From the IMG/VR virus record IMGVR_UViG_3300033121_001593, positions 32,001 through 96,000 of that record: a stretch of DNA of 64,000 nt. One strand, given 5' to 3'. The DNA is from a virus. Its lineage: Duplodnaviria > Caudoviricetes. Below are positions 2,701 through 3,370 of the stretch, one piece after another; the stretch's first letter is position 1; each line of letters starts with the position of its first letter. The notes under the pieces were generated by a model, which worked only from the letters and a program-made list of their open reading frames with translations, did not search any database and was not told the origin of the DNA. Position numbers and translations under genes: made by a program.

Positions 2701-2801
2701 GGGCCTGAAGGCAGTAGACGGAGGCAATTGCCTCCCTCCGGGAGCGCGCTAAGTCCGTGAGGATGACGCGAGCGGGGTTCAAATCCCCGACGGGTCCACC
2801 A
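2701..2801 (+). ncRNA. tmRNA TLD-like mini RNA 1 (Ala identity, no mRNA-like domain)
   Basis: GGGCCTG/CGGGTCC-A-CCA with G3-U70; stemless D loop ending GAC; CGGAGG/CCTCCG stem; T arm CGGGG-TTCAAAT-CCCCG. Confidence 0.7.
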
Positions 2802-2806
2802 AACCT

Positions 2807-2879
2807 GGGCGAGTAGCTCACTTGGGAGAGCGCCAGTCTGGCAGACTGGAGGCAGCGGGTTCGAAGCCCGCCTTGTCCA
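2807..2879 (+). tRNA. tRNA-Ala(GGC)
   Basis: Canonical cloverleaf, G3-U70, CCAGT-CTGGCAG-ACTGG. Confidence 0.93.
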
Positions 2880-2927
2880 CTAGGTCGGGAAGCGAGAGGC
2901 AATCCCTCAGCGCACCGGCCGCGCCTT

Positions 2928-3009
2928 GGGGTCACTGTCGAGGCGACTTCAGCCATCACCGCTCCGGCCGGGCGGCGGCTGAAAAAGGGTTCGATTCCCT
3001 GTGGCTCCA
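2928..3009 (+). ncRNA. tmRNA TLD-like mini RNA 2
   Basis: GGGGTCA/TGGCTCC-A with G3-U70; D loop ending CGAC; TTCAGCC/GGCTGAA helix capped by a GC hairpin; T loop TTCGATT. Confidence 0.7.
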
Positions 3010-3013
3010 CCTA

Positions 3014-3074
3014 GCGTTTAGCCCGCACCTGTGACTTGTCCGTGGCCTCCTCGCCGGGGCAGCGGGCTAAACGC
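3014..3074 (+). ncRNA. Stem-closed RNA module with CTCCTC apical loop
   Basis: 13-bp perfect GCGTTTAGCCCGC/GCGGGCTAAACGC. Confidence 0.5.
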
Positions 3075-3165
3075 GAAAAGCCTGGCCGGCCCGATACGTA
3101 TTAATCGGCAGCCGTGCCGCCCGCGTTCAGCGCGCCGGCCGGGCATCATGAGCCAGGAGGCCAGA

Positions 3166-3306
3166 ATGGTCTATCACGAATTCATTGTAGACGGTCGGCC
3201 TCGCCGGCACAAGACCCTTGACGAGTATCTTCGGCGGGGCCTGAGAAAGTGGCGGCAATCGACGCGAGTCGTACCCCGCCGCATGAAGTGGTGGCGCGTG
3301 ACTTGA
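3166..3306 (+). CDS. Small Arg-rich peptide (46 aa)
   Basis: AGGAGG at 3155-3160 before ATG 3166; MVYHEFIVDGRPRRHK...KWWRVT. Confidence 0.5.
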   Translation: MVYHEFIVDGRPRRHKTLDEYLRRGLRKWRQSTRVVPRRMKWWRVT

Positions 3307-3370
3307 GGCCAGCGATACGGAAGCGACGGTCCTTATGGGCCGCCCCCGGTTCGATACCGCGGTGGCTTCA
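3305..3370 (+). ncRNA. tmRNA TLD-like mini RNA 3 (66 nt)
   Basis: GAGGCCA/TGGCTTC-A with G3-U70; loop ending CGAC; CGGTCC-TTAT-GGGCCG; T loop TTCGATA. Confidence 0.65.

Follow-up and report, generated by a model that had tools for sequence, protein, structure and literature searches.

The window analysed here is a 64,000-nucleotide (nt) stretch of a Caudoviricetes phage, bases 32001-96000 of an IMG/VR record of 143,318 bases (IMGVR_UViG_3300033121_001593; CheckV completeness 97%). The genome has a GC content of about 62% and encodes a portal protein, a probable terminase and SSB. Positions 1-6300 of the window carry a tRNA array on the plus strand. Within this array lie three small tRNA-like RNAs, c1, c2 and c3 (jointly, the minis), which bear the identity marks of alanine tRNA and have neither an anticodon nor a tag open reading frame (ORF), as a sequence-only reading of the window had proposed. 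They are interleaved, as that reading also stated, with two genuine tRNA-Ala genes in an operon preceded by a sigma-70-type consensus promoter (Table 1).

Table 1. Coordinates of the RNA operon features in the window
Feature	Start	End	Strand	Remarks
Sigma-70-type consensus promoter, TTGACA-16-TATAAT (12/12)	2355	2382	+	Upstream of the RNA operon
Element A, anticodon-less tRNA-like RNA, G3:C70, non-alanine type	2420	2488	+	Acceptor and T-arm scan
X, structured spacer RNA, about 105 nt, between element A and tRNA-Ala	2494	2598	+	BLAST conservation
tRNA-Ala(CGC), G3:U70	2599	2672	+	
c1, putative anticodon-less alanine-type tRNA mimic	2701	2801	+	Body 2701-2798, CCA to 2801
tRNA-Ala(GGC), G3:U70	2807	2880	+	
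c2, putative anticodon-less alanine-type tRNA mimic	2928	3012	+	Scan body 2928-3009; A73-CC end
Long conserved hairpin, 13-bp outer stem	3014	3074	+	Downstream of a mini in every sister phage
Small basic ORF, 46 aa, GGAGG Shine-Dalgarno	3166	3306	+	TGA stop 3304-3306
c3, putative anticodon-less alanine-type tRNA mimic	3305	3370	+	
tRNA-Trp(CCA), next operon gene	3452	3529	+	

Alanine identity marks of the minis

All three elements, first placed at 2701-2801, 2928-3009 and 3305-3370, were recovered by a scan for a TTCRA T loop, a T stem and a perfectly paired acceptor stem of 7 base pairs (bp), and were cross-checked by direct reading. This exceeds chance, as outside the 7-kb array the scan returned only about five short matches (both strands, 143 kb). 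Each mini has an acceptor stem paired at 7/7 positions, G3:U70, A73 and a T loop of the TTCRA type (TTCAAAT, TTCGATT or TTCGATA), which bears out the sequence-only reading on these marks; a T occupies position -1 in all three. Within the window G3:U70 is restricted to c1-c3 and the two tRNA-Ala genes, being absent from the seven other tRNAs and from element A.

Neither ARAGORN nor Rfam called a tRNA or a transfer-messenger RNA (tmRNA) on c1, c2 or c3. They do not have the canonical tRNA-Ala cloverleaf (RF00005), with its 5-bp anticodon stem, 7-nt loop and Ala anticodon: their loops are 4-5 nt or long and not conserved. What the minis have in common is that acceptor stem, T arm and A73 are intact and that hairpins with freely varying tips take the place of the anticodon arm.

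Homologues were sought in Logan, ENA and NCBI assemblies, where relatives could be reached only via homologues of two neighbouring proteins. This gave the sister contigs L096, L098-L100, L103, L121, L122 and L126, all syntenic with the window. The probe neighbour protein is 70-86% identical to that of the window for L096-L103, L121 and L122, and 82% identical for L126. G3:U70 is kept in 13/13 distinct mini sequences and in every homologue found. A second mark that was expected to be conserved, a GAC at the end of the D loop, did not hold up.

Other searches for relatives were less productive. BLAST of positions 2400-3600 against 50,697 phage records returned ordinary tRNA genes only, and pattern scans of IMG/VR, JGI metagenomes and species genomes gave nothing, or chance matches within coding sequence. 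The searches made thus detected these RNAs in no cultured phage and in no further contig of IMG/VR or JGI; relatives of the terminase in IMG/VR were short contigs only.

Structure and conservation of c1, c3 and c2

In c1 the acceptor stem leads into a D region of 12 unpaired nt, a tetraloop hairpin of 6 bp and a hairpin resembling a variable arm; a T arm and A73-CCA complete the element. It had been described as having a single capped helix; instead there are two hairpins, the tetraloop one at the site of the anticodon arm and the variable-arm-like one. The c1 family includes seven distinct sequences of 88-115 nt in six contigs. All follow one architecture, in which 12-13 unpaired nt separate the acceptor stem from a 6-bp hairpin whose tetraloop is not conserved; a GGGAGAG-type linker, which is conserved, leads to a second hairpin of highly variable length, and a T arm and A73-CC complete the molecule. 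In their alignment 98% of the cells are paired, versus 37-54% with slid partners, and both-sided (compensatory) changes occur at 6 pairs, a number reached in 0/500 shuffles. G3:U70 is present in 7/7 sequences, whereas pairs 4, 5 and 7 switch between CG, GC and UG. The supposed GAC of c1 reads GTC, GGTC, GTTC or GCGC in the homologues. Pairing of the D-region GUCAG with the 3' strand of the T stem was considered and rejected, as the aligned sequences, checked by hand, do not covary there. A minus-strand ORF at 2672-3010 was also discarded; the length differences among the c1 homologues are not multiples of three.

c3 has A2:U71 and G3:U70 in its acceptor stem, a D-like loop of 13 nt and a single central hairpin whose length varies, besides a T arm and A73. 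Four distinct sequences (66, 80, 80 and 98 nt) form its family, and their conservation runs exactly from G1 to A73 while both flanks are completely diverged. The D-like loop retains GC.A.A.GG..GC. Changes in the central helix are C-G to T-A, A.C to G-C and two that are wobble-compatible; those in the T stem are C-G to A-T and C.C to G-C. The tip of the hairpin may be as short as a UUAU tetraloop or carry an insert of 36 nt. The GAC that had been taken for a loop motif in fact makes up positions one to three of the central helix. In a sister contig GGT takes its place and a G-to-A change on the opposite strand compensates; the GAC is therefore a paired segment and not a conserved single-stranded motif.

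c3 begins inside a small ORF. The TGA of this ORF, which codes for a very basic protein of 46 amino acids (aa), overlaps G1-A2 of c3 in the window, L098, L099 and L100. Amino-acid identity in the last three is 89-98%, and the last codons show synonymous changes. Homologues lie at L098:1658-1798, L099:1087-1227 and L126:8327-8491; the L126 version is a 54-aa form, and its TAG overlaps G1 of another mini with G3:U70, the 76-nt element m2 (L126:8491-8566), whose acceptor stem is similar to that of c2. The ORF has no family in Pfam or PHROG, and a word search found no homologue. Look-alikes in the Atlas (GIIM, score 0.84) were below the usable level and were set aside. Since c3 is retained in L096, where the small ORF is absent, it must be more than a terminator of this ORF. 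Pairing of the c3 3' strand with an identical GAGGCCA over the ribosome-binding site of the ORF (3157-3163) was rejected, the site not being conserved in L098/L099.

c2 combines an acceptor stem of 7-8 bp and a T stem of 4-5 bp with a single long, irregular hairpin and perhaps a D stem of 4 bp; it ends in A73-CC. Of the stemless D loop ending in GAC that had been attributed to it, the GAC is present, but it can close a 4-bp mini D stem, GUCG/CGAC. No sequence homologue of c2 was found. Contigs of two wastewater studies join 2880 to 3033 (indel 2881-3032) and do not contain c2 and its spacer. Taken together, c1, c2 and c3 are real elements, and on the comparative evidence c1 and c3 are conserved RNA genes.

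Relation to tmRNA and to tRNA-Ala

The sequence-only reading had gone further and assigned the tRNA-like domain (TLD) of tmRNA to all three minis. A phage tmRNA of the "TLD only" kind is known in Mycobacterium phage DS6A (tmRNA Website tmID 11587; PMC4131195, PMC11915505). We located it at DS6A 28478-28560 and used it as a positive control: it aligned end-to-end with the Rfam tmRNA model (RF00023) at 43.2 bits. On the same model c1 obtained 14.3 bits and c2 and c3 were not reported at all; the phage's own tRNA-Ala genes outscored c1 with 22 and 17.3 bits. The mitochondrial tmRNA (mt-tmRNA) model RF02544 had no matches. A permuted tmRNA model gave weak matches of 12.6 and 11.3 bits, which were rejected. 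The best clan match of c2 is tRNA-Sec (21.9 bits).

In the tmRNA consensus (RF00023) the stemless D loop reads ...GG..UCGAC, its GAC being paired to a GGA(C) that immediately precedes the T stem. The nucleotides preceding the T stem are GAG in c1, AA in c2 and GCC in c3, so the GGA(C) partner is absent in all three, and so is the tandem G.A / 3' GGAC motif. The combination of acceptor stem, G3:U70 and A73 that tmRNA requires is present in c1-c3; it does not discriminate, as ordinary tRNA-Ala has it too. Judged by eye, c2 and c3 have the three-way layout of the DS6A RNA, c2 being the most TLD-like of the three. With the GAC not conserved, its 3' GGAC partner missing, Rfam scores low and synteny linking the minis to tRNA-Ala, the TLD assignment is unsupported, and these sequence comparisons do not place c1-c3 in the tmRNA family.

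The link to tRNA-Ala is seen at two levels, synteny and the acceptor stem. In L096 a c1-type mini (L096a, L096:10505-10602) occupies the flanks which in the window and in L122 belong to tRNA-Ala(CGC). L096a shares the first 11 and the last ~28 nt of tRNA-Ala(CGC), its middle being a mini body. The acceptor stem of c1, GGGCCTG/CGGGTCC, is that of tRNA-Ala(TGC) of L121 and differs at one position from that of tRNA-Ala(CGC) of L103 and L126. Both observations are those expected of common descent or exchange. The minis thus evolve together with tRNA-Ala genes, which suggests that they arose from, and still exchange ends with, phage tRNA-Ala genes rather than tmRNA.

Some tRNA-Ala genes of the sister contigs are themselves unusual. 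At L103:721-796, at L126:7953-8028 and past position 681 of L121 the T loop is aberrant (AGCGAAG or AGCAAAG, not TTCRA). ARAGORN misses these genes, while the L126 copy obtains 50 bits with Rfam.

Proposed action and alternative explanations

On the evidence of sequence comparison, the minis are conserved, structured, promoter-driven tRNA-like genes with alanine marks and without an anticodon. As they have no 7-nt anticodon loop and their loop sequences are not conserved, decoding is impossible, and competitors or decoys are what such RNAs would most likely be. We therefore interpret c1-c3 as tRNA-Ala-derived, non-decoding alanine-type tRNA mimics that probably act as competitors or decoys, an interpretation to which we give about an even chance.

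The presumed path would be as follows. RNase P would excise the minis at G1, next to the T at -1, and their 3' ends would be finished by tRNA-trimming enzymes together with a phage or host CCA-adding enzyme; c3 would in addition mark the 3' end of the message of the small ORF. Host alanyl-tRNA synthetase (AlaRS) would then charge them with alanine via G3:U70 and A73, which reportedly suffice for alanylation even in minihelices (Hou & Schimmel 1988; Francklyn & Schimmel 1989). The minis may compete for factors recognising the acceptor/T-arm half of tRNA-Ala or tmRNA, with SmpB (already proposed in the case of the DS6A TLD-only RNA), AlaRS, EF-Tu and host enzymes attacking tRNA 3' ends as candidate targets. 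By analogy with the published precedent the minis possibly sequester SmpB, for which there is no sequence support here. Genes for a TROVE/Ro60 protein, RtcB and a CCA-adding-type nucleotidyltransferase, all related to RNA repair, are present in the phage genome; no SmpB gene was found there.

Several points weigh against this interpretation. Close strains do without c2, and no mini follows the tRNA-Ala of L121. The T stems of c1 and c3 are 6-layer or bulged. c3 has A2:U71 and not G2:C71, which may weaken alanylation, and since its acceptor stem is invariant, specific selection on its G3:U70 is not demonstrated. A search of the phage genome for users of Ala-tRNA (FemAB, AlaRS, Fem-like acetyltransferase) found none. 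The stretch is present as low-depth contigs in four runs (three from RNA libraries, one probably from DNA), and such contigs cannot show transcription or RNA ends. The ends of the minis, their charging and the binding to their partners are predictions.

Alternatively, the minis could be true TLD-only (CDS-less) tmRNA genes, descended from tmRNA, that bind SmpB and block or short-circuit host trans-translation. The layout of c2 and c3 agrees with that of the DS6A RNA, in which an unpaired D-like loop containing GG and a single closed helix lie between the acceptor stem and the T arm, and which likewise has G3:U70 and A73. An RtcB-like ligase is encoded by both DS6A and this phage, and passages in PMC4131195 (citing Mao 2009) and PMC11915505 report strong inhibition of tmRNA by a similar TLD-only molecule, perhaps through titration of SmpB. 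That the minis are true TLD-only tmRNA genes is nevertheless unlikely in view of the RF00023 scores, which place c1 far below the DS6A RNA and even below tRNA-Ala and are lacking for c2 and c3, of the empty mt-tmRNA search, of a GAC that is either non-conserved or Watson-Crick paired and has no GGA(C) before the T stem, of the extra variable-arm hairpin in c1, and of the exchange with tRNA-Ala seen in synteny. The minis might also be processing signals only, similar to t-elements, at which RNase P and 3' trimming cut the operon and set mRNA ends, aminoacylation being irrelevant. This concept is published (PMC1920247) and would fit the T at -1 in all minis, the hairpin tips that are free to vary and the position of the ORF stop, which overlaps G1 of c3 (window, L098/L100, L099) or of another mini (L126). 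By this overlap a tRNA-like fold would directly abut an mRNA end at c3 and at m2 of L126, but not at c1 and c2. The latter two are flanked by real tRNAs and hairpins and not by ORFs, so that an additional signal for cutting would be superfluous; c3 is also present in L096, which lacks the ORF, and the fixed G3:U70 amid covarying neighbour pairs and the retained A73 would be left unexplained. We consider an exclusively processing role quite unlikely.

Functionless, decaying duplicates of tRNA-Ala would account for the presence or absence of c2 among close strains, for the lack of a mini in L121 and for the very different body lengths, and phage tRNA arrays do turn over fast. We regard this reading as very unlikely. 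The elements have sharp boundaries against fully diverged flanks, compensatory changes that preserve all helices, conserved single-stranded D-like loops, and a G.U pair which is one mutation away from G-C or A-U and is retained in all the distinct sequences. Finally, the TROVE/Ro60 gene of the phage raises the question of Y-RNA-like partners of Ro60, the more so as bacterial and phage Y RNAs mimic tRNA (PMC4201824). Known Y RNAs, however, sit just upstream of Ro60 (PMC4201824, PMC12135203), whereas the Ro60 gene of this phage lies ~60 kb from the minis and has its own promoter-driven non-coding leader of ~350 nt directly upstream. YrlA is permuted, its 5' and 3' ends making up the Ro-binding stem, while the minis have the normal tRNA order, and the YrlA model RF02553 reached at most 21.8 bits, off the minis. 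A role as Ro60 partners is accordingly extremely improbable. The Ro60 leader itself (L093:2083-2488, minus strand; genome 96648-97053, just past the window end) has a TTGACA/TATCAT promoter, is free of ORFs and is structured.

A bolder reading would unite the small ORF and the minis in a ribosome-rescue module run by the phage. Cutting by RNase P at G1 of c3 (of m2 in L126) would strip the small ORF of its stop codon and yield a stopless message, of the kind from which ArfA and BrfA, two alternative rescue factors, are produced. Charged anticodon-less minis would meanwhile block SsrA tagging or add untagged alanine. If this were true, the phage would substitute its own rescue for the host's tag-and-degrade pathway; we regard such a module as a long shot.

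Comparison with known systems

The DS6A RNA is a close known counterpart. Like the minis, it is phage-encoded, measures about 80 nt and has a 7-bp acceptor stem, G3:U70, A73, a TTCGAT-type T loop and no tag ORF; it also has an unpaired D-like loop with GG and one closed helix in place of the anticodon arm. Unlike the minis, it has the ...GGUCGAC D loop and with it the conserved GAC/GGAC pairing. The minis, for their part, are three paralogues that differ from one another and lie within a tRNA operon; c1 has an additional variable arm, and synteny ties the minis to tRNA-Ala. The DS6A RNA (JN698994: 28478-28560) is unannotated in the GenBank record, and the RtcB-like ligase of DS6A is gp76.

Tag-less tmRNAs of mitochondria (jakobid, oomycete) and of Mallomonadaceae plastids resemble the minis in having an alanine-type tRNA-like domain and no message (RF02544; PMC11915505). 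They differ in that SmpB co-occurs with them and they are recognisable tmRNA homologues. tRNA-Ala and alanine minihelices share the acceptor stem, G3:U70, A73 and T arm with the minis, and the phage tRNA-Ala genes also share the operon and the processing context; the minis are distinguished from tRNA-Ala by the lack of a D stem (c1, c3) and of a 7-nt anticodon loop, and by the unconserved loop sequence.

Plant mitochondrial t-elements (Forner et al. 2007, PMC1920247) are tRNA-like folds that abut an mRNA end, and c3, which begins within the stop codon of the small ORF, may be comparable. The t-elements do not need amino-acid identity marks, and c1 and c2 abut no ORF. YrlA and the other Y RNAs (PMC4201824) are likewise non-coding tRNA mimics, and this phage too has Ro60; their modules are arranged in the opposite order and they are adjacent to Ro60, unlike the minis.

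A phage anticodon-less alanine-type mimic has been published once, for DS6A, its action being deduced from a surrogate in E. coli. New here are three unlike paralogues in one operon, the c1 type with a variable arm, a mini that replaces an orthologous tRNA-Ala, and the overlap of an ORF stop with a mini.

Other features of the phage and its relatives

The -10 region of the operon promoter is retained in L103, L121, L122 and L126. Element A has homologues in L098, L099, L100, L103, L121 and L126; in L121 a GTAA tetraloop substitutes for its middle loop. The spacer RNA X is conserved by BLAST in L096, L097, L103, L121, L122 and L126 and matches no Rfam family.

Further along the array, a tRNA with a 6-nt anticodon loop lies at 4730-4800. 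ARAGORN reports it as "tRNA-???, anticodon ac", Rfam gives it 53 bits with the tRNA model, and it is conserved in sister phages (L096:11745-11815, L099:3459-3532). Three T-arm motifs lie close together at 4195-4451, their candidate acceptor stems overlapping; ARAGORN calls a 97-nt tRNA-Arg(CCG) there.

Elements that stand alone and combine G3:U70 and A73 with a T arm occur in unrelated phage contigs; one type (L075:5465-5542; also L076 and L078) is 78 nt long and another (L072:7660-7802; also L073) 143 nt. Neither ARAGORN nor Rfam recognises them, and they may be additional alanine-type mimics.

Implications

In a clade of large wastewater phages, a tRNA operon with a strong promoter includes up to three putative mimics that differ from one another. 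With their three architectures, their natural presence/absence variants and an ORF stop placed on a predicted RNase P site, the minis are clean objects for tests. The exchange of places between tRNA-Ala and a mini suggests that such mimics can originate repeatedly, and from tRNA-Ala rather than tmRNA. Overall, the locus suggests that these phages invest in non-decoding RNAs which may engage the alanine-charging or ribosome-rescue machinery.

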